DNA of 33,039 nt from PVC group bacterium (lineage in GTDB: Bacteria; Verrucomicrobiota; Kiritimatiellia; CAIKKV01; PXCX01): positions 1 through 33,039 of the forward strand of contig PXCX01000138.1 in assembly GCA_003565195.1 (NCBI GenBank), read 5' to 3'. The translations under genes and the position numbers were made by a program. Under the pieces are notes generated by a model, which ran no database searches, had not been told where the DNA came from, and was given only the letters and a program-made list of their open reading frames with translations. Each line of letters starts with the position of its first letter. Position 1 is the stretch's first letter. Positions 7,107 through 24,582 of this stretch are shown in pieces.

Positions 7107-7135
7107 TTGTCAAGCGCTGGATAGTCATGTATAGT
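7107..7135 (+). promoter_or_regulatory. sigma70-like promoter for the GH4 / glycosyltransferase genes
   Basis: TTGTCA (7107-7112), exactly 17 nt of spacer, TATAGT (7130-7135). This predicts a ~60-nt leader before the ATG at 7202. It lies back-to-back with the minus-strand promoter. Confidence 0.5.
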
Positions 7136-7201
7136 GGCAATGTTTTTGGCAACGTAATGTTCCGGGAAGTGCCGGTGTGGCAATCGAAAGGAAAACTGAC
7201 A

Positions 7202-8584: not shown

Positions 8585-8671
8585 ATGGAGGGGTAGTTTC
8601 TGGACAGGCGCTAAACCCGGCACGGTTTGGGTAGTTCCCGACTTCCGGCACGGGATGGAGAATGAGTCGCC

Positions 8672-9847
8672 ATGCCTCAGCGGGTCTTAATTGTCAACCA
8701 TACAGGGATCATGGGTGGCGCCGAAGTCGGGCTGGCGGAATGGATCCGTTTTTTGGACCGCGATCGTGTATATCCTCTGGTTGCCGCACCAATGCAGGGA
8801 CCCTTGAACGATCGATTACGGGCTGCCGGCGATCGGGTACTGGCGCAGCCGATGATCCGGGTGCAACGAACGTGGAATCCGTGCCGCATGACCGTAATGG
8901 CGGTTCAGGGATGGCGTCAGATTTCCATGTTGAGCCGTTTAGCCGGCCAGGAACGAGTCCGTGTCCTACATGCTAACAGTAATCATGCCCATCTGATCAC
9001 GGCGCCGGCGGCGCGCCGGATGGGCATGCCCTGTATCTGGCATGTGCGCGACCTGACGCCGTTGGGCTGGATCGGGCGCCGCTTATACAGGCGGGCAAGC
9101 CTAATTGTTGCCGTTTCAAAATCGGTGGAGCGCCACGTACAGCAGTATCGGACCGGTCATGACCGCGTTCGCGTGATTACCAACGGGATTGATGTAACCC
9201 GCTTTAACGGAGACAATCCTGACCGCGCGGCTGCGCGCCGGTCGCTTTTCCCGCGGATTGATGACACAATGGTTTTGATCGGAATGGTGGGCAACCTGGT
9301 TCCCTGGAAACGGCATGATCTTTTTTTGGATATCGCCGCAAACATGCTTCGTGAAAACGCCGATCAACTGCGGTTCGTGATCGTCGGTGACGATCGCTTT
9401 GGCGACCATCCGGAATACGAACGATCCCTTATTTGCCGGATTACCAAATCCCCGCTCAACGGCCGGGTTCTGCTGGCGGGATATCGTGAAGATATTCCCC
9501 GCGTTATGCAGGCCCTCGATATCCTGGTGCATCCGGCGGAACGCGAACCGTTCGGGCGGGTGATGGTCGAAGCGATGGCCGCCGACCGGCCGGTGGTGGC
9601 GGTGAACGCCGGCGGCGCATCCGAAATTGTTGTCGATCGTGTAACGGGCTATTTAACGGCGCCAAACGATGTTGGCGCGATGACCAATGCCGTCCGGTCG
9701 CTGGCGCGCAATCCCGCTTTGCGACGACAATTGGGAGAGGCCGGCCGGCAGCGGGCCTTGCGTGAATTTGATGTGCGTCGCGTCGGTCGGTTGATGACCG
9801 AAATGTACGAGGAACTGGCGAATGAATACGCGTCCGATCGTCATTAA
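8672..9847 (+). CDS. glycosyltransferase, GT4 family (GT-B fold, Glycos_transf_1-type)
   Basis: The N-terminus RVLIVNHTGIMGGAEV is typical of GT4. The C-terminal half carries LLAGYREDIP...DILVHPAEREPFGRVMVEAMAADRPVVAVNAGGASEIV (EX7E-type region). GGAGAA lies 9 nt upstream of the ATG. Confidence 0.9.
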   Translation: MPQRVLIVNHTGIMGGAEVGLAEWIRFLDRDRVYPLVAAPMQGPLNDRLRAAGDRVLAQPMIRVQRTWNPCRMTVMAVQGWRQISMLSRLAGQERVRVLHANSNHAHLITAPAARRMGMPCIWHVRDLTPLGWIGRRLYRRASLIVAVSKSVERHVQQYRTGHDRVRVITNGIDVTRFNGDNPDRAAARRSLFPRIDDTMVLIGMVGNLVPWKRHDLFLDIAANMLRENADQLRFVIVGDDRFGDHPEYERSLICRITKSPLNGRVLLAGYREDIPRVMQALDILVHPAEREPFGRVMVEAMAADRPVVAVNAGGASEIVVDRVTGYLTAPNDVGAMTNAVRSLARNPALRRQLGEAGRQRALREFDVRRVGRLMTEMYEELANEYASDRH

Positions 9848-10955
9848 TGCGGTCCTGCTGGGGCACGGCCGGGAATCGGGAGTGGAACGGTGTATCCGCG
9901 GTCTACTGGAAGCGCTCGCCCGTTATGGCCGGTTGCCATACCGGGTTTACTGTGCTCCCGGCAGCGATCTCGCGCATCTGGTAAGCGATAGGTTTAGTGT
10001 CGAAACTGTTGGTTTTCCAGTTCGCTCGCGGGGGTTACGTATTCTCTGGGAGCAAACCGTGCTGCCGTTGGTCTTACGGCGAGAAGCATCGGCTTTGTTG
10101 CATGCGCCCGGATATGTTGCGCCGCTGGCCGCGCCACCGCCGGTTGTCTTGACGGTTTACGATCTCGTGGCGTTACGTTTTCCCCAATGGGCAGCACGGG
10201 CAAATGCATGCCATTATCGTTGTCTGATGCCCGCTGCCATCCGGCGTGCGCGTGCCATCGTAACCCCCTCGACAACCGTACGCGACGATGTCATCCAACG
10301 ATTCCGGTTGCCACAATCCAAAGTTCATGTCATTGCGCCGGCCGTCGCACCACTCTTTTTCGAAACGCCCTCGGTTGACCAAACCGAATCCGTCCGGCGA
10401 CATTACCGGTTGCCGCCGCAATTTCTGCTCTATGTCGGCAATATCGAGCCCAAAAAAAATACGGAAGGTTTATTAAACGCCTATGCACGTTTGTGCCGGA
10501 TCGATCGCGAAACCCCGCCACTCGTGATGGTTGGCGAACTGGCCTGGAAATCGCAAAGTTTTGTTCGCCGTCGGCGTCAACTCGGATTGAATGCGCGGGT
10601 ACTCTGCCTCGGTCCGCTGCCGGACAGGGATTTGCACTTGATTTACGGGTTGGCAACCTTGTTGCTCATGCCGTCCTGGTACGAAGGATTCGGGTTGCCG
10701 TCGCTTGAAGCGATGGCTTGCGGAACGGCGGTGATCGTTTCAACCGGTGGCGCGCTACCGGAAACGGTTGGAGATGCGGCTGCCTGTCTTGACCCCGGCA
10801 ATGAGGCGGTATGGAGTCAAACCATCCATAAACTGCTTAAAGACGCCGGTCTCCGCGCCCGGATGACCAAACAAGGACGTAACCATGCCCGACAGTATAC
10901 GGCCACCGCGGTCGCCGAGCAACACGAAACCCTCTATCGCGCTATCGCCATATGA
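9822..10955 (+). CDS. glycosyltransferase, GT4 family (mannosyltransferase-like)
   Basis: YVGNIEPKKN, LLLMPSWYEGFGLPSLEAMACGTAVIVSTGGALPETV (EX7E region). It overlaps the preceding GT gene by 26 nt, which suggests co-transcription. Confidence 0.9.
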   Translation: MNTRPIVINAVLLGHGRESGVERCIRGLLEALARYGRLPYRVYCAPGSDLAHLVSDRFSVETVGFPVRSRGLRILWEQTVLPLVLRREASALLHAPGYVAPLAAPPPVVLTVYDLVALRFPQWAARANACHYRCLMPAAIRRARAIVTPSTTVRDDVIQRFRLPQSKVHVIAPAVAPLFFETPSVDQTESVRRHYRLPPQFLLYVGNIEPKKNTEGLLNAYARLCRIDRETPPLVMVGELAWKSQSFVRRRRQLGLNARVLCLGPLPDRDLHLIYGLATLLLMPSWYEGFGLPSLEAMACGTAVIVSTGGALPETVGDAAACLDPGNEAVWSQTIHKLLKDAGLRARMTKQGRNHARQYTATAVAEQHETLYRAIAI

Positions 10956-10980: not shown

Positions 10981-11009
10981 TTGACACTTGCGCGACTCGA
11001 GGGTATCAT
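10981..11009 (+). promoter_or_regulatory. sigma70-like promoter upstream of the 448-aa RRE-like protein gene
   Basis: TTGACA (10981-10986), 17-nt spacer, TATCAT (11004-11009). The next plausible start codon is the TTG at 11151, which implies a ~135-nt leader. Confidence 0.45.
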
Positions 11010-11150: not shown

Positions 11151-12497
11151 TTGTTGTGCTGGGAAGGAGCGGGCCTTTTCGCGCCTGAACGATGGGAGAT
11201 CGGACGGCATTCCGGTGATGCCGCTAAAGGTTTTTTCCGGATCGACAACGACCATCGGTTCGTGCTCCAATTGCGCTGGTGGACGGCAACGAAACCGGTG
11301 CCGATAGCGCGCCTGGTCGAGCAGCATGCACGTGAGGTTGCCGGTCGTAGGGATGCGCAGTTGCCCCGTTTCCAGAAAACCAATGATTTCCGGTTGCCGC
11401 AAGGGTCGCACGATCGCGCGTCCGCTTTTATTTCGAAGCCGTCCGGCGATGCACCCGCTGATTCTTCCGAACTGCTAGTTATCTGGCAGCGTAGCTCGGT
11501 GGCGCGCGTAATGATGATCCGGTTTATGATCGAACACGGTCAACCGGATCCGATCTGCCTGAAGTCCATGTTGTCGGGACTACGATTGCAAGGACCGCAG
11601 GAAACGCGGGATTGGGCGTTTCACGATCTGGCGTTTCAAACACCGCCGGACTGGCATCTGCAATTGGCGCATTTGTATGCCGGTGTCGCCTATCTCGAAT
11701 TTAAACATCGACGCGACCGGTTTGCGATCCGGCGTTTCAGTGTGGCCGATGCAGTCATGGGCACGACTACGCCCGCAATCGAGGATTTGACGCGCTGGTG
11801 CCGTGTGGTGTATGCCAAGGAATTTTTCGATATGCGATACCGCATCGAATTGATGACGGATCCGGCCGGCCGTCCGGGACTGCGGCTCAGCGGTTCGCGC
11901 CGCTGGCTGGCACCGATCGAGATGCGCTGGCTGCTTCCGCGGCATCGCCGTCTGCCGCGCCGGATCGACATTATCTGGGATGCGGCGGCCAACAAGATCT
12001 ATAACCTTGAGATTCGGCGTCCCTCGCTCGCGATGGAACCGATCCTGGGTACCGTCCAAAAAAGTCTGCGACTGAATCTAGCGGATGTGACCGCCAAAGT
12101 TTGCCAGGACGAACCGCCGAATGGCACGGTGCCGCCTCGCGCACGATCCCTTAATGCGCGCGTACGGAGGCGCAAGGAAGTTTATAGTGAAATCAACAAT
12201 CAGGGTCGCACTGTCCTGACCTACACGTTCCCAAGACCTCGCCGTTTGCGGGGACTACGTCTGTTGGCCGGCCTGGATTCCGGTCCGCAAAAGATCAAGC
12301 GCAAACTGGAACTGGATCTGATCGGTAGTTTGGTCTGGGAACGCTGTGACCGGTCGCCGAAGGTAAGGCAACTGATCGCGGATGTCCGGCAGCGATTCCT
12401 GATCAGCTACCGGGAAGCGGAACTTTCGGTTACGGAATTCATCCGTGCCATGGGTTCACGGGGACTGTTGTCCGTCCATATCGACGCCCCATCCTGA
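11151..12497 (+). CDS. hypothetical protein with C-terminal PqqD-like (RiPP recognition element-like) domain
   Basis: 448-aa ORF. In-frame upstream sequence is closed by a TGA at 11076-11078, and the first canonical start is the TTG at 11151 (AGGA 6 nt upstream). The last ~100 aa (nt ~12176-12494: ...RTVLTYTF...RKLELDLIGSLVWERCDRSPKVRQLIADVRQRFLISYREAELSVTEFIRAMGSRGLLSV) follow the PqqD-family pattern. I did not recognise the N-terminal ~340 aa. Confidence 0.7.
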   Translation: MLCWEGAGLFAPERWEIGRHSGDAAKGFFRIDNDHRFVLQLRWWTATKPVPIARLVEQHAREVAGRRDAQLPRFQKTNDFRLPQGSHDRASAFISKPSGDAPADSSELLVIWQRSSVARVMMIRFMIEHGQPDPICLKSMLSGLRLQGPQETRDWAFHDLAFQTPPDWHLQLAHLYAGVAYLEFKHRRDRFAIRRFSVADAVMGTTTPAIEDLTRWCRVVYAKEFFDMRYRIELMTDPAGRPGLRLSGSRRWLAPIEMRWLLPRHRRLPRRIDIIWDAAANKIYNLEIRRPSLAMEPILGTVQKSLRLNLADVTAKVCQDEPPNGTVPPRARSLNARVRRRKEVYSEINNQGRTVLTYTFPRPRRLRGLRLLAGLDSGPQKIKRKLELDLIGSLVWERCDRSPKVRQLIADVRQRFLISYREAELSVTEFIRAMGSRGLLSVHIDAPS

Positions 12498-12554: not shown

Positions 12555-13283
12555 TCAGCCAATGTTTCCGACTTTAATCCGCAGTTCGGAGGCGTTGGCA
12601 ATGCGTTCAATCTTCCCATCAGCGACCCAAACGACGCGATCGGAAACCGCCAACATGGCGTGATCGTGGGTTGCGGTAATAACGGTCACTCCGAATTTGC
12701 GACTCAATTCGCGCAGCAGAACGATGATTTGCTCACCGGTATGCAAGTCCAGGTTGGCGGTCGGTTCGTCGGCCAGCAGAATGGTTGGTCGGTTGACGAT
12801 GGCGCGGGCGATAGCAACCCGTTGTTGCTGGCCGCCGGACAACTCGTCCGGCCGATGAGAACAGCGGTCGGAAAGTCCCACTTCTTCCAGCGCTTCAAAG
12901 GCACGCTGGCCGGCTTCAGCAGGTGTGGCGCCGGCCAATGCTGCCGGCAAGGCCACGTTTTTGTGAGCCGTCAACGAGGAAATCAAATTGTAGGATTGAA
13001 AAATATAGCCCATATGCCGACTACGGAAATAGGCTGTCTGACGGTCCGTGATCTGATTGAGAAAAATGCTGCCGATTTCAACCGTCCCGCTTGAGGGTAA
13101 ATCCAGTGCGCCGATCATGTTAAAGAGCGTTGACTTGCCGGAACCAGAGGGGCCCATAACCGAAAGGTATTCTCCTTCGGTCACGTCTAGGTTGATACCG
13201 TCCAGCGCATGAACTTCGCCCCGCCCCGTTTTAAACGTTTTACAAACGTCACGCACTTCGATAATGGTGTTGTCGTGTTCCAT
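12555..13283 (-). CDS. ABC transporter ATP-binding protein, MacB/LolD/FtsE-like
   Basis: Walker A GPSGSGKST, Q-loop IFQSYNL, signature LSGGQQQR, Walker B ILLADEPTANLD, H-loop THDH. The start lies 1 nt after the stop of the upstream membrane-protein gene. Confidence 0.95.
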   Translation of the reverse strand: MEHDNTIIEVRDVCKTFKTGRGEVHALDGINLDVTEGEYLSVMGPSGSGKSTLFNMIGALDLPSSGTVEIGSIFLNQITDRQTAYFRSRHMGYIFQSYNLISSLTAHKNVALPAALAGATPAEAGQRAFEALEEVGLSDRCSHRPDELSGGQQQRVAIARAIVNRPTILLADEPTANLDLHTGEQIIVLLRELSRKFGVTVITATHDHAMLAVSDRVVWVADGKIERIANASELRIKVGNIG

Positions 13284-13284
13284 C

Positions 13285-15228
13285 TCAATACCCCAACTGG
13301 AAAATGGACTGGCTAAGAAAGGTAATGCCGACGCACAGCATGGCGATCAAGCCCATGCCGCAACCGAATCCCGCAGAAATCACCGGAATCATTTTCCGCC
13401 ACTGCGGTCCGAACTTCTTTTGAAAATGGAACCGCCCGATCAGGGCGCCGAAAAACATCAGGAACATGCTATGCGGCATCGTCTGGTTCAGTCCCCGCAC
13501 GAACCCGTAGGCCAGCAGGATGGGTGCTCCGAACACAGCCAGGATAATATACGTCAAAAGACCCGCGACGCTGCCGGCCCCGATATAAAGCAGGTTTAGC
13601 GCCTTGTAAAAGGGCGAGAATTCATCCATCGTCGCTCCCCAGGTAATCGTTTGATTTAAGGCCTGGAACTCCCACATGCGTTGAGCGAACGGATAGGCCG
13701 CCGAGGGGATCGGCGCCAGCGACCAGATGAAATTGGCAAACACAATCGAGCACACCAGAATAAATGGCACCAGAAAGAAATCGGCTTTCCAAACCGACCA
13801 GAAACGGGTTCCAGTGAGTTCGGCCTGACGGTAAAAAACCGTATCGCTACCGTAGTTACTAAGCGGAATCGGCAGAAACCAGATTTTAAGTCCTTCGTAT
13901 CCGGACAGGATAAAACCCGCCTCCCTGACCAACGGCAGGTTGACAGCCTGGCCGCACATACCCTCCAAACGGGCGGTTACATAACTCATCACCGGTGTGT
14001 AAACCAATCCGTAAAAACAAAGAACGATCATCACGCCGCGATGCCAGTCGATCAACCAACCACTTAACAAAATGTACAAGCTCACATAACCGAAATAAAA
14101 GGAGAGAATCCCCCAGTTCGGAATGTCACCCCGTCCGGGCGGCGCGCCCAACAGTTCATCCTGCACCGTTTGACCAGCCTTACTGCGTTTCACCGAAGAC
14201 CAGACGGAGTAGAACCCGATCAGCGCCACTGCCAGCGACAGACCGACACTGAAGGAAAAATAAAAGTCGATCGTATTTTTGTACAACGTGACAATCGTTC
14301 CGTCGCCCGGTCGCCATTCCGAGAGAATCCCGGCGCCATACAGAAACGGATTGACCACAATCGTGAAAACCACTCCCAGGAAACTGCCCAGAACAGCCCA
14401 GAATGGCATAACCATCCCGATGAAAAAGCTGCCCATATCGAAACTCATGCCGGTCGCGACTGCCGGCAGAAAGCCTTCGGTTTTGCCGGTCCAGTCCACG
14501 AACGGAATCGGCAGCGGCTGCATCGTCACATTAAAAATGGCGTTGGAAAGAACCGGGATCCCGAGATAAATAAATCCGAAAATCATGCCGATAGCGCCGC
14601 CGATCGAAAAATAGCGCCACCGCGGCGATTCCTCGTCGCCTTGTTCTTCCAGCGCCAGCATGCCCATGGCGCCGACCGGTGCCATGGGGAAGGGGAGCTT
14701 TTCGTAATCGCTGGTAAGCTTAAACAAACCGTATCCGAGAATTCGTCCGTCGACCCGTCCCAGAACACTGGTCAGGAAAACCAATCCCACGGCCGGCAGC
14801 CATTCCCGCATGAAGAACGAGCGTTGTCCCAACACTTCCGGATCGCTGGGCGCGAACCAGATAGGGAAATCGTTCTGCCATCCCTGAGCGTAGACCGCTT
14901 CGGACTGGACCACAAACTGATTCCACAGCAAACCGCTGAACGGCGTGGCCATGGCGGCGCTGCATAGATAAAAGAGGACAAATATCTCGGCGCGTTTCAA
15001 GGTTTTATGGGTGCGCCGTGCAACCTCCAGGAAAAGGATGGCCGTCACCCAGGTGGCGGCGTTGGTGGGACTCTGCCCCGCCACCAACCCCATATACATG
15101 GCTCCCGGCACCATCATGAGGGCGATAAATACTGCTGCGGCAAAGGATGTCCAGGTGAATCCGTCGTTAAATTCCGTCGGACGCTGGATCAGATCCCTAA
15201 ACTCTTCAAGTTCCTTGTCTAATTTCAT
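13285..15228 (-). CDS. polytopic membrane protein, OPT-superfamily-like (function unknown)
   Basis: 647 aa with many hydrophobic helices throughout. The N-terminal layout (helix - YMGLVAGQS - AATWVTAILFLEVARR) and a KLPFPMAPVGAMGM motif (nt 14659-14700) resemble OPT-family transporters by eye. ATGA start/stop overlap with the upstream giant gene at 15225-15228. Confidence 0.8.
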   Translation of the reverse strand: MKLDKELEEFRDLIQRPTEFNDGFTWTSFAAAVFIALMMVPGAMYMGLVAGQSPTNAATWVTAILFLEVARRTHKTLKRAEIFVLFYLCSAAMATPFSGLLWNQFVVQSEAVYAQGWQNDFPIWFAPSDPEVLGQRSFFMREWLPAVGLVFLTSVLGRVDGRILGYGLFKLTSDYEKLPFPMAPVGAMGMLALEEQGDEESPRWRYFSIGGAIGMIFGFIYLGIPVLSNAIFNVTMQPLPIPFVDWTGKTEGFLPAVATGMSFDMGSFFIGMVMPFWAVLGSFLGVVFTIVVNPFLYGAGILSEWRPGDGTIVTLYKNTIDFYFSFSVGLSLAVALIGFYSVWSSVKRSKAGQTVQDELLGAPPGRGDIPNWGILSFYFGYVSLYILLSGWLIDWHRGVMIVLCFYGLVYTPVMSYVTARLEGMCGQAVNLPLVREAGFILSGYEGLKIWFLPIPLSNYGSDTVFYRQAELTGTRFWSVWKADFFLVPFILVCSIVFANFIWSLAPIPSAAYPFAQRMWEFQALNQTITWGATMDEFSPFYKALNLLYIGAGSVAGLLTYIILAVFGAPILLAYGFVRGLNQTMPHSMFLMFFGALIGRFHFQKKFGPQWRKMIPVISAGFGCGMGLIAMLCVGITFLSQSIFQLGY

Positions 15229-18200
15229 GTTTGGGAATCATCCTCCCGGATGCCGAACCGTTCAGCCGTCATGCGGTAATAATGGTCCGCGGCATCATCT
15301 GGAATCGTGCGCCACAGAATAAACTGGTTGCGCAATTCGTGAATAAAAACACGGCTACTGCGTCGCCAGATCGCCGGGCTGCCGCTGCGTCGTTGCATGG
15401 CGACATGTACCTGATCGATACCCTCGATCCGGCTCGGCTGTGTCCAGAGACTAAAGGTTTGCGAAATTCCCTGATCAAACGGTTGCAGCCAGACATTGGC
15501 TTGCAGGGTAAAGCGTTCGTCCTTGTGCTGGACTTCGACGTCGTTGGCGGCGAAAAGGCCCACCGACTTTTCGCTATGCGACGCCAGATATTCTTCGAGA
15601 AAGCTGACCAGACCGACCATATCGTAATCAGAAACGGTGAACGGGAATTCCAGGCGCAACCAATCGCCTTCCGGTTCCGGCATACGCCACTGCCTTTGCG
15701 CGCCGGGATTGGCGGACCGCGATGCTCTGAAGGCCGGATACACTGTTGATGCCAAAACGGTCAGCATGACCATCAACAGGGTCAGCATCGCGTTCAACGA
15801 AGAATGGTTCATCGCCGGTGCGCCCACCCAGCCCTGTTGCGCCATCCATTCGACCAACTTTGAGAATACATGTGCAAACAGATATCCGCCCATGCCGCCT
15901 ACCACGGCGTAGACAGCGGCTTCAGCGAAAAACAGCGTTGCCACATGCCGCGGTCCGAGACCAAGAGCCGAAAAGGTGAAAATTTCGCGTTGCCGGTCGC
16001 TGACCGAGCTGAGCATCGTGCCGAAGATAATCAAGCCGCCGAGCACCAGCGGCACCACAACACGGGCAAGTCCGCCCATCGATACTTCCGTCGCGTATAA
16101 TGCCCGGAAATGGTCCCCGCCCGCAGCGAAACTAGCCCGCCGCGACAGTTGGATTGCCAAATCCGACGCAATTCGACGGGCTTGCGCTTCGGTTTGCGGC
16201 AAGAAAACCAAACTCCGAATCGGCATATTCAGGCGCGGGGCGCGCGGTTGCCATACCAGGGAAACCGTCTCGGGATCGAGCGGCGGATAATCTTCCAACT
16301 CCATTTCCTCGAGCCGTAACTCGATCGCCAGCGGATCGTTGGGATACTCCTGTTCAAGCTGGCGGTTAACCTCCTCCAGGTTCGGAGGGACGAAGGATGC
16401 GCCATCCAGCGTACGCAAAGCACCCAGGCGCACTGGATCAAACGTACCCCTTAACACATGGCGCTGCCCGGCCAATTCGATCACCGCTGCGCCGTTGGTC
16501 CGAACATGTTCCGGAAGACGACGGTAAATCTCCGGCGGCAGAAATACGCCGCCTTCCTCTGTGAATCCCTCGAGGTCGCCGTCCAGAATATCCCGCAGTT
16601 CGGGATACAATCTCAAGTCCTGTGGCGGCAGAGTTGCCTGCCCGCTGACCGTGAACACGGTATCGTCGGGGAAACGTCCGGCCATGCTTTCATGCTCGTC
16701 GGCAACGTTCCAAGTGCGGAAATAGCTATCCGCCTCGTCTTCATGCAGTTCCCGGAGCATCACAATGGCTTGTTCGTCAAAGGCGCTCCCAGGCACGGAC
16801 CCGATTTCCACGAGCGGCATGCGGGGTCCCGGCCCGACATAGATCTGCCGGACACCGTCCTCGCTTTTAAACGAGCCGAAGAACAGGATCGTGAAGGTCA
16901 GCAACAAGATGGTGACAGCGGTTAAAACGCTGCGCAGCGGTCGGCGTCGCATGGTGGCGATTCCCAGGGCGACTGCTGCCCCGATCATACCCCGAGCCGT
17001 TCGAGTGCTTTGGTGACTTGCGGTAGCCAAACCATGCAGTTTTCGCATTTCGTATTCGAACTTTTGCCACATAATGGCGATCACGAAGCTGCTCATGATG
17101 ATAATCACGAACGCCAGCAGTACCACGATGGGAAAACTTACGAACCGAAACGCCGGATGTACCAGGTAAAGGATGGTGAACACCACGCCGAACACCACAA
17201 CGAACCCGCCGATTTGACGATAAATATTGGGTGTGCCGATGACGGCGCGCTCGAACGCGAAAGCGAATGGAATAGCCAGCAGGAGCAAAATAACGATGGC
17301 TGTTACCAGATCGTTGGTAACGTCGCGTACCGGTTCGTAGACGCGCGCCGAATAGCCGCGCGAGGCCAGCGTCCGCGACCAGCGCTGGGCCGGCGAAACC
17401 GTCTCCGCCGTCGCCTGGTCAAGAAAACGTTCCGCTTGCGCATGCAAGCGTTCCAGCGAATGCTGCATGACGTTACGCCGCCGCAGGCTGTCTAGCCGGC
17501 TCTCGTTCAAAATCCAGGTGTCACGGGCCGACCGGAGCTGGGCATCCACGAATCCCGGTTCCGGCTCATAACCGTCACCGACCGGTTCGACTTCCGAGTT
17601 GTTTAGCAGCAATTGCGCCCCGTGCAACACCTTGTAGCGGCGTACACGTCCGGCATACACCGCCAGCATGTCGCCGCCCAAGGTTAAATTCATCTCTTTG
17701 GGCGCGCTCTCCGTTATCCCGTCGATGAAACGCACCGCCGCTTCACTGGCCAGGCCCATCGGTGTACGGATTCCAGCGAGCATGACCCGCACATCGGCTT
17801 CGCTGATCAGGATTTGGTTGCGGCGATCGGCGAAATACCAGCCGGCCAATTCCCAACTTCCGGCGACGCCGAGACCCCCGCCCGGCGAGCGTAAACTGAT
17901 GCCCTTGATCCGGCCTTGATCATCATGAAGCGCGGCCTGAATCGCCATGCGTGCACCTCGATCCGTCAGCAACGGAAACGTTCCGGCGTGACTGCTGTAC
18001 ATCAGGTGTCCGCCCCAACCGTGCAGCGGCGGTCGTTGGCTTACTCGCCCGCGCTCCATCGCCAGTACGACGGCACCCGGGGCATTCTCGCCCGCCTTGA
18101 AACGTTCGTCGTAATGGCGCACGTACGATCCGTCATAGCTCGTTCCGTCCCACTCGGGAACATTGAACGTCAAGGTGGCCGTCAACCGCGGCGGAATCCG

Positions 18201-20144
18201 CGTTCGTCCCAATTCCGGCACTTGGGCCAACTGCCGGATAAAATCCAAAGCTTGCTCAAGCTGTGCGGCATAGGCCACCATATCGGCGCTGCTTTCAGCC
18301 GGCGGCGGCGGCACCGGCTGGACGGCACCCGGATTGGCCAGTTCCAAAATGAATGTGGTACGTCCACTGACTCTTGCCGCGGCCGGACTGGGAAAATCGG
18401 GCACGTACCCCATGGGGGCGGGGCTCGTCTTAGGCGTAGCCACCGAAGGGGTATACGTCTCCCGCATCCAGCGAATCACATGCGGGTTCGACAAGGAGGC
18501 ATGTTGCACGTCTTCGGCCGGTCCCAAAACAGCCCAGTTTCGCGGTGCCGGCAGCAGATTAAAGACAATTATGTTAACCAGTCGATGCTCGTCTAAACGC
18601 TCGCCCAACGCCTGTTGATGTTCTAGAATTTCGCGTTCGCGGGATTGTTCCTTCAAACGATCCTGCCAGCTTTGCTGCACGTCTGAAATTAAAGTTTCAA
18701 AAAATGCGCGTTCCTCGGGATCGTCGTCCGCTCCGGGAACCCGTTCGGCGGTTAACAGGACGCGTACGGAAAACACGATGTCCCGGTCATGTTCGGCCTG
18801 CTCCAGTCGCTCCATTGCATCGTCACGCGTCAGCTCGCGCAGGCGTTCAGCACGGTCAAGCTCAAGCTGTAAGGCCGCCCTCTCGTCGTCTTCATCGGTT
18901 GATCTGCCCGGTACCAGCCGCCGCAGACTCATTTCCAGTCTTGCAATCCGTCGATCCAGCAGATTGATTTCCCGGCGTACGTCACTGAGCGCGGATACGC
19001 GTTGATTGTAAATCTGTTCGATGGTGTCGAGTACGGACTGACGAGCTTTTGACGCAGCGGGCTTTTCGCTGCGTCGCTCCATCAGGGCCACGGGATCTTC
19101 GATCGCCTCCAAGAGCCCCTTCAAAAACGAATGCTCCCGGTCGCGATCCCGGATCATGCGCAGGAACGAACCGGGAACGTCGCTTGGACGGTAGGCGTCC
19201 CGAGCGTAAAGGAACTGATACTGTCCGGCTTGTTGCTGCGCTTCGTTATCAAAAAAAACGGCCAGGACCGGACGTTCAAGCGGATTATGTTGCAGCCACG
19301 CGACCGTCTCGATCAAGCCCGCCACGTTGGCAGCTTCCTGCGGTAACTGTGTCGCAAACGGCAAGGTTCCAAAGGTATCGTAATGCGTCGCCAAAACCAA
19401 CGTGTCGGCGGGTGATTCATCAACCGGTTGGGTTCCGGGAATGAAAACGTATAGATTACGTCCTTCGACGCGTTCGAATCCCATTCGGCTGAAAAGGGTG
19501 ATTTCCGTCCCGTTCAGCAGACCTTGTTCAGCAGCGATTTCAGATTCGACGAAGAACCGGGGGATATCCAGATGGGCGAAATAAAACTTGATGTCTTCCT
19601 CATGGAACGCCTCAGACGGCGCAGCTTCCCGTTCGCCTACGAACATCACGGCCACGGCGCCGGCTTGGACGGCGCGGGTCCAGCGTTCAGCGCAGTTGTA
19701 ATCGAAGATTGCGATATGGTCCCTGATTTCCTTGCCTTCGAAATGCTCCCAATGTCCGTCCGCCAGATATACCGTCGGCGCCGTCAACCCGTCGATCGGG
19801 GTCACAGGCAACGCCAAGCCGTTCGGTCGCAGCGGTTGCATGGGAAACCGTTGGCCCGCCTGCTTGAAGTAGCAATCCCCGTCCGCCATCTCCAGTTGCG
19901 GCATGGCAAACGGTTGCACGAGGATCTGGTCGTCGGTCACACCGGCCTCGCGCAATCGACGCAGGATCGTGTCGCCCGCCGCACGCCCTTCATCCGAACC
20001 CGCCAGACGATGCGGTGTTGCGAGCAGTTCCGACATGGTTTCCGTCAAGCGCGTGACATCCACTGTCGCGCCGTAAACACTGGCGCACAAGACAACAACA
20101 GCGCAGACCGTCATCCAAACTATCTTTTTTAGGCGTCGTTTCAT
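15225..20144 (-). CDS. 1639-aa fusion protein: signal/anchor - PA-domain M28-peptidase-like ectodomain (apparently degenerate active site) - coiled coil - large ectodomain - 3-TM bundle - FtsX/MacB-type permease module - C-terminal cytoplasmic domain
   Basis: N-terminal MKRRLKKIVWMTVCAVVVLCASVYG. PA-like segment GKEIRDHIAIFDYNCAERWTRAVQAGAVAVMFVG. M28-like THYDTFG...PQEAANVAG...FFDNEAQQQAG (nt ~19242-19385). Arg/Glu/Leu-rich heptad-like stretch at residues ~330-520. Hydrophobic bundle at nt ~17065-17315. MacB-type TM1 (MRRRPLRSVLTAVTILLLTFTILFF, nt ~16870-16955). FtsX motif SDRQREIFTFSALGLGPRHVATLFFAEAAVYAVVGG plus terminal TMs (nt ~15715-16080). A ~160-aa tail follows. ATGA overlaps occur at both ends. 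Confidence 0.85.
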   Translation of the reverse strand: MKRRLKKIVWMTVCAVVVLCASVYGATVDVTRLTETMSELLATPHRLAGSDEGRAAGDTILRRLREAGVTDDQILVQPFAMPQLEMADGDCYFKQAGQRFPMQPLRPNGLALPVTPIDGLTAPTVYLADGHWEHFEGKEIRDHIAIFDYNCAERWTRAVQAGAVAVMFVGEREAAPSEAFHEEDIKFYFAHLDIPRFFVESEIAAEQGLLNGTEITLFSRMGFERVEGRNLYVFIPGTQPVDESPADTLVLATHYDTFGTLPFATQLPQEAANVAGLIETVAWLQHNPLERPVLAVFFDNEAQQQAGQYQFLYARDAYRPSDVPGSFLRMIRDRDREHSFLKGLLEAIEDPVALMERRSEKPAASKARQSVLDTIEQIYNQRVSALSDVRREINLLDRRIARLEMSLRRLVPGRSTDEDDERAALQLELDRAERLRELTRDDAMERLEQAEHDRDIVFSVRVLLTAERVPGADDDPEERAFFETLISDVQQSWQDRLKEQSREREILEHQQALGERLDEHRLVNIIVFNLLPAPRNWAVLGPAEDVQHASLSNPHVIRWMRETYTPSVATPKTSPAPMGYVPDFPSPAAARVSGRTTFILELANPGAVQPVPPPPAESSADMVAYAAQLEQALDFIRQLAQVPELGRTRIPPRLTATLTFNVPEWDGTSYDGSYVRHYDERFKAGENAPGAVVLAMERGRVSQRPPLHGWGGHLMYSSHAGTFPLLTDRGARMAIQAALHDDQGRIKGISLRSPGGGLGVAGSWELAGWYFADRRNQILISEADVRVMLAGIRTPMGLASEAAVRFIDGITESAPKEMNLTLGGDMLAVYAGRVRRYKVLHGAQLLLNNSEVEPVGDGYEPEPGFVDAQLRSARDTWILNESRLDSLRRRNVMQHSLERLHAQAERFLDQATAETVSPAQRWSRTLASRGYSARVYEPVRDVTNDLVTAIVILLLLAIPFAFAFERAVIGTPNIYRQIGGFVVVFGVVFTILYLVHPAFRFVSFPIVVLLAFVIIIMSSFVIAIMWQKFEYEMRKLHGLATASHQSTRTARGMIGAAVALGIATMRRRPLRSVLTAVTILLLTFTILFFGSFKSEDGVRQIYVGPGPRMPLVEIGSVPGSAFDEQAIVMLRELHEDEADSYFRTWNVADEHESMAGRFPDDTVFTVSGQATLPPQDLRLYPELRDILDGDLEGFTEEGGVFLPPEIYRRLPEHVRTNGAAVIELAGQRHVLRGTFDPVRLGALRTLDGASFVPPNLEEVNRQLEQEYPNDPLAIELRLEEMELEDYPPLDPETVSLVWQPRAPRLNMPIRSLVFLPQTEAQARRIASDLAIQLSRRASFAAGGDHFRALYATEVSMGGLARVVVPLVLGGLIIFGTMLSSVSDRQREIFTFSALGLGPRHVATLFFAEAAVYAVVGGMGGYLFAHVFSKLVEWMAQQGWVGAPAMNHSSLNAMLTLLMVMLTVLASTVYPAFRASRSANPGAQRQWRMPEPEGDWLRLEFPFTVSDYDMVGLVSFLEEYLASHSEKSVGLFAANDVEVQHKDERFTLQANVWLQPFDQGISQTFSLWTQPSRIEGIDQVHVAMQRRSGSPAIWRRSSRVFIHELRNQFILWRTIPDDAADHYYRMTAERFGIREDDSQT

Positions 20145-20890
20145 GGTGTATGGCCGACCTCCACGGCAGCCAGTTCGATATTGAGATCTTCGCGACGCGA
20201 AATACGTTCCACCTGTCCGTCGCGGATCCAGACCACGCGATCGGAGACATCCAGCATGCGGTGATCATGGGTGGAACAGATCACGGTTGCGCCACTCTCC
20301 TTGTTAAGCCGAACCAGCAAATCGTTGATTTCCTGGCCGGTTTTAAGATCCAGATTGGCTGTTGGCTCATCGCAAAGCAGAATGGAGGGATCGTTGGCCA
20401 GCGCTCGCGCAATGGCCGTTCGCTGCTGTTGTCCACCGGACATTTCCAGCGGTCGATGATCCCAACGATCTTTGAGACCCACCATGTCCAATAATTGCAT
20501 GCCGCGCTTCCGGGCTTGATCATCGATCAGACCGGCAAAAATCATGGGTGTCGTTACGTTTTCCAAGCAGGTTTGCACGGTAACCAAATTATAACTCTGA
20601 AAAATGTATCCGATTTTCTTGCAGCGAATATAGGCCAGTTCGTCGGCGTTAAGCTGGGCTACATCGACTTCATCGATAAAGACGGTGCCTGACGTCGGTG
20701 TGTCCAGCGCACCGATCGCATTGAAGAGCGTGGACTTTCCCGATCCTGACGGACCCATGATTGAAACGAATTCACGGCGCACCACTTCGAGGTCAATGCC
20801 GCGCAACGCTTTGGTAATCACGCCGTTGCGGTTGTAATCCCTGCAAACGCCTTGCGTCCGAATAATGATTTTTGAAAGTTTCCGACTCAT
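20141..20890 (-). CDS. ABC transporter ATP-binding protein, MacB/LolD/FtsE-like (paralogue of 12555-13283)
   Basis: GPSGSGKST, IFQSYNL, MSGGQQQR, ILLCDEPTANLD, THDH. It shares long identical stretches with the other ATPase, including the C-terminal VSDRVVW-x-DG-x-ERI. Its stop overlaps the start of the giant gene (ATGA at 20141-20144). Confidence 0.95.
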   Translation of the reverse strand: MSRKLSKIIIRTQGVCRDYNRNGVITKALRGIDLEVVRREFVSIMGPSGSGKSTLFNAIGALDTPTSGTVFIDEVDVAQLNADELAYIRCKKIGYIFQSYNLVTVQTCLENVTTPMIFAGLIDDQARKRGMQLLDMVGLKDRWDHRPLEMSGGQQQRTAIARALANDPSILLCDEPTANLDLKTGQEINDLLVRLNKESGATVICSTHDHRMLDVSDRVVWIRDGQVERISRREDLNIELAAVEVGHTP

Positions 20891-20894
20891 ATTC

Positions 20895-22346
20895 CTATTC
20901 CACCCTCATGGCGTCCACCGGCACCATGCGCGCGGCGGCAAAGGCCGGGTACAAGGCCGAAAGGGTAGCCAGCGCCAGGCCACTGGCGATGGCGATGAGT
21001 GCTCCCCATCCCAGATCCGACCACGGGAAAAACCGCCAAACCCAGTGCCCGTAAGCATAGGCCATCCGAGTGACGGCGATCACGCCACCCAAAAGCACAC
21101 CCAGAAATCCGCCCACCAGACCCATCGCCGCAGCCTCGATCAGCGACAATCGTGCAATGAATCCGTTTAACGCACCCAGACATTTCATTGTGGCGATTTC
21201 ACGAAAACGTTCGATTACGCTGATCAGCATGGCATTGGTAATGCCGGCAATACAAACCATAAACGAAACCACCAGCAACCAAAACATATTTGCGTCCAAC
21301 CCGGTTCGCGTACCGTAATTGGCGATCAGCAACTCATCCATATCGAGAATACGCCGCGTTTGCAAGATCCGTCGAGCCGCATCCACCGCAATGCCGGCAT
21401 CGATATCGGCAGCCTGGGCCAATTCGCGTTCCTCCATCCATAACGCCCGTTCATCGTGCTCGGCCAGCGCCACCAAAGCGCGACGCTGATCGAAAACCTC
21501 CCCAAACTCGTCGCGCCAGGCGGTAGCCAAGCGCGGTTCACGCAGGACACGCAGCAAATCACGTTCGCGCTGGCGATCGCCGGCGCGAACCATCAACGCC
21601 TCCAGTCGCTCCGACGGCACGGAAACCTGATGTGCGTCGAACAAATCGGCCGCGGTCTCCACATCGGTTGCAGCCAACCATTCGGCTAGGCCATCGGCCT
21701 CGATATGGGACGCAAACGCTTCGCGATTTTTATTAAAGTGATCGCTGGCCCGTCGCAAACTCTCCAAAAAATAGGATCTGCGGGGCAGGAAATCAACTAG
21801 GCCGTCGGGCAATCGCAGGGGAATCATGCGAGCTGTACGCACGAACTCGCGTCGTTCATCCGGATCTTGTAATTGCGCGAATAAAGTTTCGCGATCAAGG
21901 CCTTCCGTCAATATGCGTTGATGTCCCGGCGGCAATTCGTCAAACCAGGCATCGTATTGCAACAAACTGGCGCAATCATCCATAAAAAGCGGCAGACGCT
22001 CCTTGTCCACCCCCATCCACGCCGTAAGACTCTGCGGCAACCAGGATCCCGGCGGCAGCTCCGCCAGATTGCGGGCCAGTTCGCGGGGGGGCATTTCGGT
22101 GTCGAAAAAAACAGCCACCTGTCCCAGCTCGCGCTGTTCGCTGGCCAGCGCACCAACCCCTGTCTTGCAAGCGTCGGCAATCTGATGTTCAACCAAAACA
22201 TTCGACAAAAAGGCCACCGCCAGCACCACAACGCCCAGTGTCAGCAACGAGCGAAACAGCCGGTACTGGATACCATCGACGGCGATGGCCACTTGCTTGA
22301 GCAACGGCAAATTATTCTGATCGCGTAAATCGAGTTTGGTAGTCAT
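20895..22346 (-). CDS. FtsX/MacB-type ABC permease with a long charged, helix-like loop
   Basis: TM1 YRLFRSLLTLGVVVLAVAFLSNVLV. A ~290-aa Glu/Arg/Asp/Leu-rich loop (nt ~21296-22190). C-terminal FtsX signature LISVIERFREIATMKCLGALNGFIARLSLIEAAAMGLVGG plus two further TMs, ending YPAFAAARMVPVDAMRVE. There is a 4-nt gap to the downstream ATPase gene. Confidence 0.9.
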   Translation of the reverse strand: MTTKLDLRDQNNLPLLKQVAIAVDGIQYRLFRSLLTLGVVVLAVAFLSNVLVEHQIADACKTGVGALASEQRELGQVAVFFDTEMPPRELARNLAELPPGSWLPQSLTAWMGVDKERLPLFMDDCASLLQYDAWFDELPPGHQRILTEGLDRETLFAQLQDPDERREFVRTARMIPLRLPDGLVDFLPRRSYFLESLRRASDHFNKNREAFASHIEADGLAEWLAATDVETAADLFDAHQVSVPSERLEALMVRAGDRQRERDLLRVLREPRLATAWRDEFGEVFDQRRALVALAEHDERALWMEERELAQAADIDAGIAVDAARRILQTRRILDMDELLIANYGTRTGLDANMFWLLVVSFMVCIAGITNAMLISVIERFREIATMKCLGALNGFIARLSLIEAAAMGLVGGFLGVLLGGVIAVTRMAYAYGHWVWRFFPWSDLGWGALIAIASGLALATLSALYPAFAAARMVPVDAMRVE

Positions 22347-22422: not shown

Positions 22423-24582
22423 TTAATGGTTAAACATATCTCTAAAAAACGTGATCCATTCAAATTCAAACATGTAATGATTATACCGGTAAAACACGAT
22501 ATTGGCCACAATCCAGACTGAGTAAATAAAGGCCAATCCCATGATCGTTCCAATAAAAAACGGCCGACTGCTTTCGAACAGGCGTCCACCGCCAATTTTA
22601 AGGATGGCCTTCTTGATCAGCCAGCCGATCATAAACGAGAACCATAACCGGGACATCAACCAACTTCCCAGCAACACCATGGGAAGAGGATGCAGCGGAA
22701 ATTTCGGGTAGCGTAGCCGTGCGGCGCCCGTCGCCAGAACCAGCATGGCGCCGAAGACAAACATGGGTGGAAACCGTGGATTCGTGCTAACGGCGGACCA
22801 GCGTTCCAGCATCGGGACGGACTCGCTCACGTCCAGCGTCCGTGTGGTGTCGCCTTCGTGGAAGACGCTGCCGACGACTCTTGCAGCCGCGTTGACGGGC
22901 CCTAAGCTATCGAACGGGTAATCGTTGGCAGCTCCTTCGCTGCTATAGCCCATCCAGATGGCAATCGCGACGGCCAGCACCAAAATCACGCCCAGAAACG
23001 GCACCAAAATACCCGGAGTTTGTAAGCGCCGCGTCACGCGCGATTCAACATGTACGGCGTTAATGACCATGGGTGCCAGCAACATTAGCGTCGTCCGTTG
23101 CGGAATCACGAGCACGCCTAGAATGGCCAATAAAGCATAGCCTTCGGCTCCCAACACCCGTTCGCCAAATGCGGCCACCATGAACGGCAAAGGCAGAAGA
23201 ACCCCCAGCGGTATCCACGGAATCCCCATCTCCGCCACGAGGCGGCAGACGACCAGGAACATAATCAAGACAATCAGGGTCCAGAGAATCGCAAGATCAA
23301 TTGCCACGCCATAGTGAACCAGTGTCGCGACAAACGCAACAACCGACAGTAAAAACACACGGCAGATGCGAATACTCTGCCGATCGATTTCGTTTTCCTC
23401 ATTTTTGGATCGAAATCTTCGCCATCCCAAGGCCCGTTTCAACAATGCCAGATAATAATTCCGGCCGCCATAGAGAATCATGCCAGCCATCGCCCAGGTT
23501 GCCCCCATCGACATCGGGCCGACATTGGGGCCGAAGCGGTCGCCGGTTTGAACATAAAAAATGTATGTGCCCAACACCATCAGCGGCCAGGTGAACCAAG
23601 CGGTGAAACTGATCTCCGACGGCAGCAAAACCGCTACGGAAATAACAGCAAAAAACGCCCACCCTCGCAACAACGAATATCCCTCATGACTGTCCCGCAA
23701 AAAGGAAAACTGGTTTGCCAGCTCATAAAATTGAAAGCGGGTTGGAATCGCGATCATATTCGGGAAATGGGCATGCAAACCGTTGACCGTGAACACCACC
23801 ACCATGACAATGAACCCGATCCAGAAACGGCGATTGTAAAAAATATCCGGTAGCACACGGTTCTGGTTGTATTGCACCATGGCAACGCCGACCTCGGCTA
23901 ACGGGAACGGTGTAAGCTCCCGTTCGGCCCATTGACGGTACAACAAATAGCCAAAGCTGATACACAACGTTAAAAACGTCAAAAATAACGGCAGCCAAAA
24001 AAGCGTGGGACGGGTCCAGGCTTGCCAGGAAATATCGCCAATCTGTGCCATGCCCCCCAGGGTTTCGGCAATCCCGTCGTCAAAACTCCGGGACTCAACG
24101 CCGTCCAGCAGGGCATGCGCAGGCAGCAACTCGAAAATATTTGTTCGCGCCAGCATTGTCAGGTTGCTGTGACGCGCCTCCAGCAAGGAAGGCAGATGCC
24201 CCACCGTCATTACCCATGGCGATGCCAGAAAACGCGATAACGGTGTGGCGATCAGGGCCAACGTTAACGCCACCGCCAATTCGCCGTCGCGCAAGGACCA
24301 CGTTGGAAGGAACCTTCTGAGCAGGGTATTGAAAATGCCGATGAACACAAACAAGCTTGCCAGCGCAAGCGGCGCTACGTAATGGTGCTGGGAAAGTTCA
24401 CGGGGTGCCATGATCCCATCATGATAATTGGCAATCAAAATCCCTGCCACACCGATCACCAATGCCAACAACAAAGAGCGTACCGTTACCGATCTCACGG
24501 ACGCGGGATCGGTTGATTGAGTTGGATTACCTCGATTCAACATAACGGGCCCAGTTGTACCACAAGCTTCTGATTTAATCAA
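22423..24582 (-). CDS. polytopic membrane protein, OPT-superfamily-like (function unknown)
   Basis: 719 aa with hydrophobic helices throughout and an ELTPFPLAEVGVAM motif (nt ~23881-23919) echoing KLPFPMAPVGAMGM of the 647-aa protein. The TTG start at 24582 is preceded by GAGGA at a 6-nt spacing. An alternative ATG at 24543 lacks an SD. Confidence 0.8.
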   Translation of the reverse strand: MIKSEACGTTGPVMLNRGNPTQSTDPASVRSVTVRSLLLALVIGVAGILIANYHDGIMAPRELSQHHYVAPLALASLFVFIGIFNTLLRRFLPTWSLRDGELAVALTLALIATPLSRFLASPWVMTVGHLPSLLEARHSNLTMLARTNIFELLPAHALLDGVESRSFDDGIAETLGGMAQIGDISWQAWTRPTLFWLPLFLTFLTLCISFGYLLYRQWAERELTPFPLAEVGVAMVQYNQNRVLPDIFYNRRFWIGFIVMVVVFTVNGLHAHFPNMIAIPTRFQFYELANQFSFLRDSHEGYSLLRGWAFFAVISVAVLLPSEISFTAWFTWPLMVLGTYIFYVQTGDRFGPNVGPMSMGATWAMAGMILYGGRNYYLALLKRALGWRRFRSKNEENEIDRQSIRICRVFLLSVVAFVATLVHYGVAIDLAILWTLIVLIMFLVVCRLVAEMGIPWIPLGVLLPLPFMVAAFGERVLGAEGYALLAILGVLVIPQRTTLMLLAPMVINAVHVESRVTRRLQTPGILVPFLGVILVLAVAIAIWMGYSSEGAANDYPFDSLGPVNAAARVVGSVFHEGDTTRTLDVSESVPMLERWSAVSTNPRFPPMFVFGAMLVLATGAARLRYPKFPLHPLPMVLLGSWLMSRLWFSFMIGWLIKKAILKIGGGRLFESSRPFFIGTIMGLAFIYSVWIVANIVFYRYNHYMFEFEWITFFRDMFNH

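Follow-up and report, generated by a model that had tools for sequence, protein, structure and literature searches.

Is a bacterial polypeptide of 1639 residues that joins a peptidase-like periplasmic head to an FtsX-type permease a real protein, and if so, what might it do? The question is raised by one gene (referred to here as the giant gene, and its product as the giant) in a 33,039-nucleotide stretch of DNA, hereafter the window, taken from contig PXCX01000138.1 (positions 1 to 33,039; assembly GCA_003565195.1) of a PVC group bacterium assigned to the Kiritimatiellia. An earlier interpretation, made from the letters of the DNA and its open reading frames (ORFs) and called here the sequence-only reading, had described a stalked, periplasm-spanning device in which ATP-driven motion of the FtsX module would be transmitted to a substrate-binding head of peptidase origin. 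Our analysis shows that the giant gene is genuine, intact and conserved from end to end, and that it sits in a conserved cassette of eight genes. The best reading of its product, to which we assign a probability of about 0.5, is that of the large permease subunit of an uncharacterised ATP-binding cassette (ABC) mechanotransmission machine of type VII, whose partner module would be fused in cis and whose substrate is probably a peptide.

The single polypeptide described by the sequence-only reading was found at positions 15225 to 20144 as stated, with the correction that the gene lies on the minus strand; from its ATG start the ORF runs for 1639 codons with zero internal stops. The start overlaps the stop of an upstream ATPase gene, and the stop overlaps the start of a downstream gene for a 647-residue protein, both through an ATGA, and the giant gene is therefore a member of a tightly packed operon. 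A word-indexed search returned 20 homologues of 1598 to 1824 residues; the closest 17 are 36–65% identical to the giant and cover 73–100% of it, and the remaining four align over 46–55%. An exhaustive HMMER search with residues 1–945 recovered 1081 cluster representatives (clusters at 50% identity) at E ≤ 1e-3 and 677 at E ≤ 1e-10, most of these relatives being 1500–1860 residues long. Among five remote relatives (1693–2101 residues) the FtsX domain stands about 170 residues before the C-terminus in all five, and a Pfam M28 match lies near the N-terminus in four. The family is widespread: a scan with one genome per species found a relative in at least 303 genomes. All of the 80 loci listed come from metagenome-assembled genomes (MAGs), and they belong to the Verrucomicrobiota, Kiritimatiellia, Lentisphaerota/Victivallales, Planctomycetota/Phycisphaerae, Polyangiaceae, Chitinivibrionales/Fibrobacterota and Omnitrophota. 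Two loci (L064 and L080) are from one Planctomycetota MAG, which consequently holds two copies of the giant gene. Database names for these relatives go no further than “FtsX-like permease family protein” or “ABC transporter permease”.

The sequence-only reading had recognized that an error of sequencing or assembly might have joined separate genes artificially. A family of this size spread over so many genomes means that the giant is not an assembly artefact, and full-length orthologues (126 members from many phyla) with the same domain order rule out an artefactual fusion by annotation as well; we consider the chance of such an error to be practically nil. What speaks for it is that two database entries carry the giant gene split in two. 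In one of these, a long-read assembly (L084, positions 9986–9992 of a 2.96-Mb contig), the two-gene call is due to a frameshift within a transmembrane (TM) helix, the second of the three extra helices described below, and homology is continuous across the change of frame. In the other (L085, 9809–10001) a gap of about 190 nucleotides separates a 1214-residue, M28-containing ORF from a 763-residue ORF with seven TM helices plus the tail, and this could be a real split.

The giant begins with a hydrophobic segment, as the sequence-only reading had noted in proposing a signal or anchor helix. A hydrophobic N-terminal stretch is present in 20 of 21 homologues and is mostly followed by small-residue (AxA-like) motifs, the sequence itself not being conserved. 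The signal peptide is presumably cleaved, and given these Sec-like N-termini with mostly AxA-type sites the ectodomain would probably be anchored at its C-terminal end only. Directly thereafter comes the head. A family profile built from the 21 homologues gave matches over residues 21–297, at E 6.8e-13 to 2ek8, an M28 aminopeptidase that contains a PA domain, and at E 1.9e-7 to Bacillus subtilis YwaD. A confident AlphaFold model of residues 1–945 (predicted local distance difference test, pLDDT, 83.2; predicted template modelling score, pTM, 0.84) gave 2ek8 as its best Foldseek match at 2e-15, followed by BSAP, PaAP, transferrin receptor 1 (TfR1) and glutamate carboxypeptidase II (GCPII). Pfam detected M28 in 10 and PA in 8 of the 21 homologues, and M28 in the window protein itself at E 0.086 only. 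These results bear out the M28- and PA-like segments that had been proposed for residues ~28–320.

Is the head an enzyme? Catalytic positions were read by alignment to 2ek8 and counted over the 126 full-length members, the position of the last His ligand not being located. The window protein retains His254, Asp256 and Glu301; the first of these, the His of the HxD motif, is kept in 24 of the 126 and the last, the catalytic Glu, in 23. The column of the bridging Asp is variable and the residue is absent from the window protein. Where the zinc-ligand Glu should be there is Ala302, and the family has Ala, Ser, Gly or Tyr (acidic in 0/126), while at the next ligand position, 529, the window protein has Asn and much of the family either Asp (45) or Asn (35). 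Not one of the 126 members has a complete set of zinc ligands. Asp256, Asn273, Gly307 and Trp537 are conserved and apparently structural. Judged by these residues the M28/PA head is a pseudo-peptidase that has lost its catalytic site, and with the loss of the metal site it would fit that the head binds without catalysing.

The next stretch is that from which the stalk had been derived. Its composition stands as described by the sequence-only reading: R, E, L and D make up 52% of the residues, the a and d positions of helix 362–409 are 77% hydrophobic in the best heptad register (versus a 42% background), and the region gives weak profile matches to coiled-coil proteins. AlphaFold places helices at 327–348, 362–409, 416–465 and 476–517, with pLDDT mostly at 77–95 and one block at 59; three of the four are 42–50 residues long, or roughly 6–7.5 nm. 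In the model, however, they stand between strand 293–298 plus helix 306–317, which together carry a vestigial EE motif, and strand 520–529. Because of this order of secondary-structure elements, the long helices are probably an insertion within the M28-like domain and not a stalk beneath it. The same order suggests that residues 520–650, for which a significant sequence match was not found, probably complete the M28-like fold. Part of the ~460-residue segment left unrecognised by the sequence-only reading thus probably belongs to the head. After it comes the β-rich domain 658–867, which gave no Pfam or PDB sequence match in whole-protein searches. The membrane connection would be made by the separate juxtamembrane helices 868–943, the last of which extends into the first extra TM helix as one continuous helix (918–968) in the model. 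A peptidase head on a coiled-coil stalk is therefore a picture that we no longer favor. Mean identity across the ectodomain parts (0.30–0.51) is the lowest of the giant.

Hydropathy marks the segments 8–26, 946–964, 978–996, 1006–1024 and 1072–1090, and then the FtsX helices from 1362 on. The three hydrophobic helices that had been expected at about 17065–17315 were found at 17073–17309. Their mean identity across homologues is 0.69 and an FtsX match to them was not found. They are joined to the permease by a linker in which F1029, E1032, G1038, H1044 and R1067–P1069 are invariant (mean identity 0.72) and which forms a helix (1045–1067) ahead of TM1 in the model. The succession of TM1, periplasmic loop, FtsX domain with terminal TM helices and cytoplasmic tail in the sequence-only reading holds throughout: by hydropathy and model TM1 is 1072–1090, a periplasmic domain of about 265 residues spans 1093–1355, and TM2–TM4 lie within 1359–1478, followed by a tail of about 156 residues. 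Pfam FtsX (PF02687) matches residues 1366–1476 at E 1.1e-13, above its cut-off, and is present in 21 of 21 homologues. Profile searches with the FtsX module matched 5xu1_M, MacB, LolF and YtrF, and Foldseek, using a model of residues 521–1639 (pLDDT 68, pTM 0.46), returned 5xu1_M at 2e-8 along with MacB, LolCDE, HrtBA, YtrEF, YbbAP, BceAB and FtsEX; the alignments to 5xu1, MacB and LolCE span 460–517 columns at TM-scores too low for assigning a Porter/Sabre subdomain. By every test that could be applied, the giant is a type VII ABC permease of the MacB/FtsX/LolCE superfamily. A duplicated FtsX was also considered and rejected, there being a single Pfam FtsX stretch and a score of 28.6 bits to the ADOP model against a cut-off of 622. 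Of the double membrane module in the sequence-only reading the additional membrane helices survive, as three TM helices plus one four-TM FtsX module. Extra helices, linker and FtsX helices are the best conserved parts of the giant (mean identity 0.69–0.78), the tail coming next at 0.61.

The tail is carried by every full-length relative matched (130 domain alignments, E 1e-15 to 1e-85) and, searched alone, had no Pfam or PDB sequence match. Foldseek with the 521–1639 model gave Ara h 8, CoxG, PYL and Dau c 1 at E of about 0.02 (probability 0.66–1.0, TM(target) 0.26–0.46); the aligned query region is not reported for these matches, and their ~150–165 columns fit the size of the tail. The tail fold is possibly Bet v 1/SRPBCC-like, with hydrophobic-ligand binding as a lead only.

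We compared synteny over 83 loci from about seven phylum-level groups, the denominators 49 and 64 given below being the loci with enough flanking sequence (for the DUF6785 gene, the 49 with more than 6.5 kb upstream). The cassette consists of genes for a DUF6785/DUF6784 protein, a ~300-residue protein, a PqqD-like chaperone, an FtsX permease, an ATPase, the giant, an OPT-like protein and a second ATPase. In the window the order is DUF6785/DUF6784, 483-residue FtsX, ATPase, giant, 647-residue polytopic protein, ATPase, and the same order recurs in contigs of other phyla. The 483-residue FtsX gene stands upstream of the giant gene in 49 of 49 loci, the 647-residue family was found in 63 of 64 with downstream sequence, the ~300-residue Trp-rich protein together with the PqqD-like protein in 39 of 49, and the DUF6785 gene in 34 of 49. 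Two DUF6785 genes occur at some loci (among L055, L064 and L080), in tandem in L064. The FtsX module of the giant and the 483-residue FtsX share only ~29% identity over TM2–TM4, and the two ATPases are 52% identical to one another with all motifs canonical in both; their best NCBIfam models are LolD, MacB and DevA, all under the equivalog cut-offs. All-against-all clustering of flanking ORFs, which mostly recovered antisense ORFs of cassette genes, revealed no further conserved neighbours, and scans for promoters and terminators gave counts at chance level. The best sigma-70-like match of the scanned region (11 of 12 positions) lies at 10981–11009 of the plus strand, ~140 nucleotides upstream of the fused PqqD gene.

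Some of the remaining partners may point towards a peptide substrate. Pfam OPT (PF03169) was detected in 15 of 25 orthologues of the 647-residue protein (best E 1.8e-10, with one precomputed hit) and not in the window copy; we regard the family as OPT-like, on a divergent branch, with a predicted role in transport. Members of the DUF6785 family have no Pfam OPT match, and neither family matched anything among PDB sequences. When aligned to each other by hhalign in local mode the two families are collinear (probability 7–33%, E 4.5e-4 to 5e-3) and have the motif E-x-L-P-[FY]-P-x-A in common, which is suggestive of distant paralogy without establishing it; if the paralogy is true, DUF6785/DUF6784 would be a branch of the OPT superfamily. 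At most loci the ~300-residue protein and the PqqD-like protein of ~130 residues are encoded by separate, adjacent genes directly upstream of the small FtsX gene. The fused, convergent arrangement of the window, encoding 448 residues, was also seen in L005 and L007, and a phmmer scan suggests it in L010. The PqqD proteins match only generic PqqD-family peptide-chaperone models of NCBIfam, and the ~300-residue part has no Pfam or PDB match.

Type VII ABC systems act by mechanotransmission together with periplasmic partner proteins (PMC12646458). In the reading that we favor, based on hydropathy, positive-inside residues and the structural models, the signal peptide of the giant would be removed and ~920 residues would lie in the periplasm; the three extra TM helices and the cytoplasmic linker would lead into a four-TM FtsX module with its own periplasmic domain, and the C-terminal domain of ~156 residues would be cytoplasmic, beside the ATPases. 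Binding and hydrolysis of ATP by the two MacB-type ATPases would move the FtsX stalk helices and periplasmic domain, and this motion would act on the covalently attached ectodomain, tethered by the three extra helices. The ectodomain would thereby play in cis the part that EnvC, PcsB, TesA, LolA or MacA take in trans elsewhere, its dead aminopeptidase pocket and PA domain serving as a binding site for a ligand or partner. The OPT-like proteins could provide a membrane path and the FtsX subunits the periplasmic work. Three paralogous pairs (two FtsX proteins, two ATPases, and the possibly related OPT-like and DUF6785 proteins) plus a PqqD-type chaperone are the reason for proposing one pseudo-symmetric hetero-oligomer. 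A peptide or peptide-bearing substrate is proposed because the head descends from an aminopeptidase and is encoded with OPT-like proteins and a PqqD chaperone. This mechanism was shaped by the cassette context (second FtsX, two ATPases, OPT-like, DUF6785 and PqqD proteins), which had not entered the sequence-only reading. The core of that reading, that ATP-driven FtsX motion reaches a binding head, is retained on account of the adjacent ATPases, the mechanotransmission of the superfamily and the dead metal site; the stalk is not.

Several points weigh against the favored reading. The peptide theme is made up of three family-level resemblances (a dead M28, a divergent OPT and a generic PqqD), none of which identifies a substrate, and a small precursor-like ORF, looked for next to the gene for PqqD, was not found, the search being uninformative. 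The relationship between the OPT-like and DUF6785 families is weak, the model of the membrane part is only moderate, and the insertion of the helical bundle into the M28 fold is read from the order of its elements and not from coordinates. Literature searches for the giant or any cassette member, including DUF6785 and the combinations of FtsX with M28/PA, FtsX with PqqD and OPT with FtsX, found nothing relevant. Finally, the hetero-oligomer is a proposal that has to be set against two separate homodimeric transporters.

MacB and FtsX are homodimers, and the operon could accordingly encode two independent transporters, one of a 483-residue FtsX homodimer with ATPase 1 (and the DUF6785 protein) and another of a giant homodimer with ATPase 2 (and the OPT-like protein). 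The gene order can indeed be read as the triads DUF6785-FtsX-ABC and giant-OPT-like-ABC, and both ATPases have complete motifs. We nevertheless find this unlikely, if a serious competitor, since the triads are almost never apart at loci with room for both (FtsX in 49/49, OPT-like in 63/64), the genes are translationally coupled, and none of the 83 loci showed the giant triad on its own. Nearest to the sequence-only reading is an in-cis analogue of FtsEX-EnvC, where the dead peptidase and a helical arm would, under the gating of ATP, allosterically activate or inhibit another periplasmic enzyme (e.g. a cell-wall or envelope hydrolase) and no substrate would be carried. Known FtsEX partners do join coiled coils to peptidase-type domains, some of them degenerate, FtsEX-EnvC structures are among the Foldseek matches, and the giant has both long helices and a dead M28 site. 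Against this, the cassette has no conserved hydrolase gene, the presence of OPT-like, DUF6785 and PqqD proteins is left unexplained, and in the model the helices appear inserted in the M28 domain instead of forming a hairpin docked on the FtsX periplasmic domain; on balance we judge such an analogue to be rather improbable. A more elaborate version of the favored reading would have a heterodimeric type VII mechanotransducer (the giant and the 483-residue FtsX with two different ATPases) physically coupled to two OPT-superfamily-like channels, in such a way that ATP and not the proton-motive force gates a PqqD-chaperoned peptide, which is then handed to the dead-aminopeptidase receptor arm in the periplasm. 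Such a hybrid machine is speculative, and we would expect it to be wrong.

If the head were instead an active M28 aminopeptidase, it could trim a PqqD-chaperoned ribosomal peptide during export, much as peptidase-containing ABC exporters do. The conserved PqqD-family chaperone nearby would be explained, the fold is that of real aminopeptidases, and the window protein keeps His254, Asp256 and Glu301. The family, however, never has an acidic residue in place of the zinc-ligand Glu and seldom has the catalytic one, the window protein lacks the bridging Asp and has Asn at 529, and neither a precursor gene nor a modifying enzyme is conserved with the cassette, all of which makes processing by the giant a highly unlikely function. 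Still less can be said for a role as a CARF_m8-type defence effector. This idea arises from matches to the PADLOC models PDLC01991 (“CARF_m8--CARF_LolE_TM”, E 7.4e-36) and PDLC01990 (E 1.8e-18). The match is limited to residues 948–1526, i.e. the seven-TM module, and the tail, loop and ectodomain searched alone had no PADLOC match. In its predicted secondary structure the tail does not resemble a Rossmann fold, and a CARF fold was absent from the top 50 Foldseek hits, which include Bet v 1-like folds. With no cas or CBASS genes conserved nearby, we attach very little weight to a function in defence, and we return to the type VII machine with a fused partner module as our working interpretation.

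Table 1. Segments of the giant and members of the cassette, with their positions in the window.
Feature	Coordinates	Strand	Description
Giant, residues 1–25	20070..20144	−	Predicted Sec-type signal peptide: KRRLKK, hydrophobic core, VYG|A; hydropathy peak 8–26
Giant, residues 28–320	19185..20063	−	N-terminal part of M28 aminopeptidase-like fold, inserted PA domain, degenerate metal site
Giant, residues 327–517	18594..19166	−	Bundle of long Arg/Glu/Leu/Asp-rich helices, probable insertion in M28 fold
Giant, residues 520–650	18195..18587	−	α/β segment; strand 520–529 resembles Asp-ligand strand
Giant, residues 658–867	17544..18173	−	β-rich periplasmic domain, ~19 predicted strands, pLDDT mostly 74–93
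Giant, residues 868–943	17316..17543	−	Three juxtamembrane helices, mean identity 0.51 across homologues
Giant, residues 946–1024	17073..17309	−	Three extra TM helices (946–964, 978–996, 1006–1024), by hydropathy and model
Giant, residues 1025–1071	16932..17072	−	Lys/Arg-rich cytoplasmic linker (KFEYE..HQSTRTA..RRRP)
Giant, residues 1072–1478	15711..16931	−	MacB/FtsX-type module: TM1, periplasmic α/β domain, TM2, short coupling helix, TM3, TM4
Giant, residues 1484–1639	15228..15695	−	Conserved ~156-residue cytoplasmic tail, predicted β-α-β4-α2
DUF6785 + DUF6784 polytopic membrane protein	22423..24582	−	719 residues; Pfam E 5e-56, 5e-21
Second FtsX-type permease	20895..22346	−	483 residues, 4 TM, ~300-residue periplasmic domain; Pfam FtsX E 4e-10
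MacB/LolD-type ABC ATPase 1	20141..20890	−	249 residues; Pfam ABC_tran E 2e-31; NCBIfam LolD, MacB models; 69/83 loci
647-residue polytopic membrane protein	13285..15228	−	Putative divergent member of the OPT oligopeptide-transporter superfamily
MacB/LolD-type ABC ATPase 2	12555..13283	−	242 residues; 69/83 loci
Trp-rich ~300-residue protein + PqqD-like domain fusion	11151..12497	+	448 residues, convergent with operon; Pfam PqqD (C-terminal) E 6.6e-7

Other genes of the window lie outside the cassette. Directly upstream of it (24655–28356, minus strand) is the gene for a 1233-residue protein with a marginal match to the heparinase II/III C-terminal domain (E 1.9e-5), present at 1 of the 83 loci. 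The region 4680–6870 (minus strand) holds a DUF711 protein (E 5e-176) preceded by an overlapping ORF with two ACT domains, a pair unrelated to the giant. The regions 7127–10955 (plus strand), 3616–4650 and 30180–31238 (both minus strand) hold genes for one glycosidase (GH4), two glycosyltransferases (GT4) and one GFO/IDH/MocA oxidoreductase, besides a match to Pfam AAT, the acyl-CoA:6-aminopenicillanic acid acyltransferase family. Carbohydrate-related neighbours are also found near the homologues in L001 and L003, none of them being conserved with the cassette.

To our knowledge the type VII ABC systems that are understood amount to no more than a handful (MacAB, LolCDE, FtsEX, HrtBA, BceAB and YbbAP), and each of these has revealed a distinct envelope process. 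The cassette is conserved across hundreds of species, which belong to the Planctomycetota, Verrucomicrobiota, Lentisphaerota, Kiritimatiellia, Fibrobacterota and Myxococcota and have poorly understood envelopes. It provides a natural example of a partner module fused to its permease and links FtsX-type permeases with OPT-like proteins and a PqqD chaperone. Should the complex exist, it would lend itself to cryo-electron microscopy and could expose a new pathway of peptide handling or envelope biogenesis. What is new here, an FtsX permease with a fused pseudo-peptidase and a cassette that unites FtsX, OPT-like and PqqD proteins, is in neither combination the subject of a paper that we could find. 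The claim of the sequence-only reading that the architecture had not been described agrees with these empty literature searches and has to be tempered in one respect, namely that the seven-TM chassis already exists as a PADLOC model.

It is by comparison with known systems that the giant is best placed. With the type VII ABC transporters (MacB, LolCDE, FtsEX, HrtBA, YtrEF and YbbAP), which are its best structural matches, it shares the FtsX C-terminal domain, the four-TM module, the large periplasmic domain between TM1 and TM2 and the location beside MacB/LolD-type ATPases. The giant extends this plan by ~920 periplasmic residues at its N-terminus, by the three extra TM helices and by a conserved cytoplasmic domain at its C-terminus, and its companions are a further FtsX permease, another ATPase and two large polytopic membrane proteins. 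The duplicated permeases BceB, YbbP and ADOP are likewise large FtsX-family proteins with more than four TM helices, but these have two FtsX modules and 10 TM helices, whereas the giant has one FtsX domain and its three extra helices are not FtsX-like. PDLC01991 and PDLC01990, the latter also a giant with 1791 profile positions, have in common with the window protein a chassis in which three extra TM helices are joined to FtsX; the ectodomain and tail of the window protein are unmatched by these models, and a CARF domain was not detected in it. Among peptidases, the fold and the PA insertion are those of the PA-containing M28 aminopeptidases (2ek8, BSAP/YwaD and PaAP), and like the M28B pseudo-enzyme TfR1 the giant is devoid of a metal site and presumably binds rather than cleaves; it thereby adds, from bacteria, an M28 pseudo-enzyme that can be compared with the transferrin receptor. 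It differs in its ~190-residue helical insertion after the vestigial EE motif, in the attached ABC permease and in having no TfR-type C-terminal helical dimerisation domain. Closest in design are FtsEX-EnvC, FtsEX-PcsB and YbbAP-TesA, which likewise combine an ATP-driven FtsX-type module with a periplasmic one in which long helices accompany a fold of the hydrolase type, degenerate in EnvC. By contrast, no target enzyme is conserved near the giant gene, the helices of the giant are seemingly inserted in the fold, and its module is of the M28/PA type instead of M23, CHAP or SGNH; the partner that these systems recruit as a separate protein is in the giant part of the permease itself.

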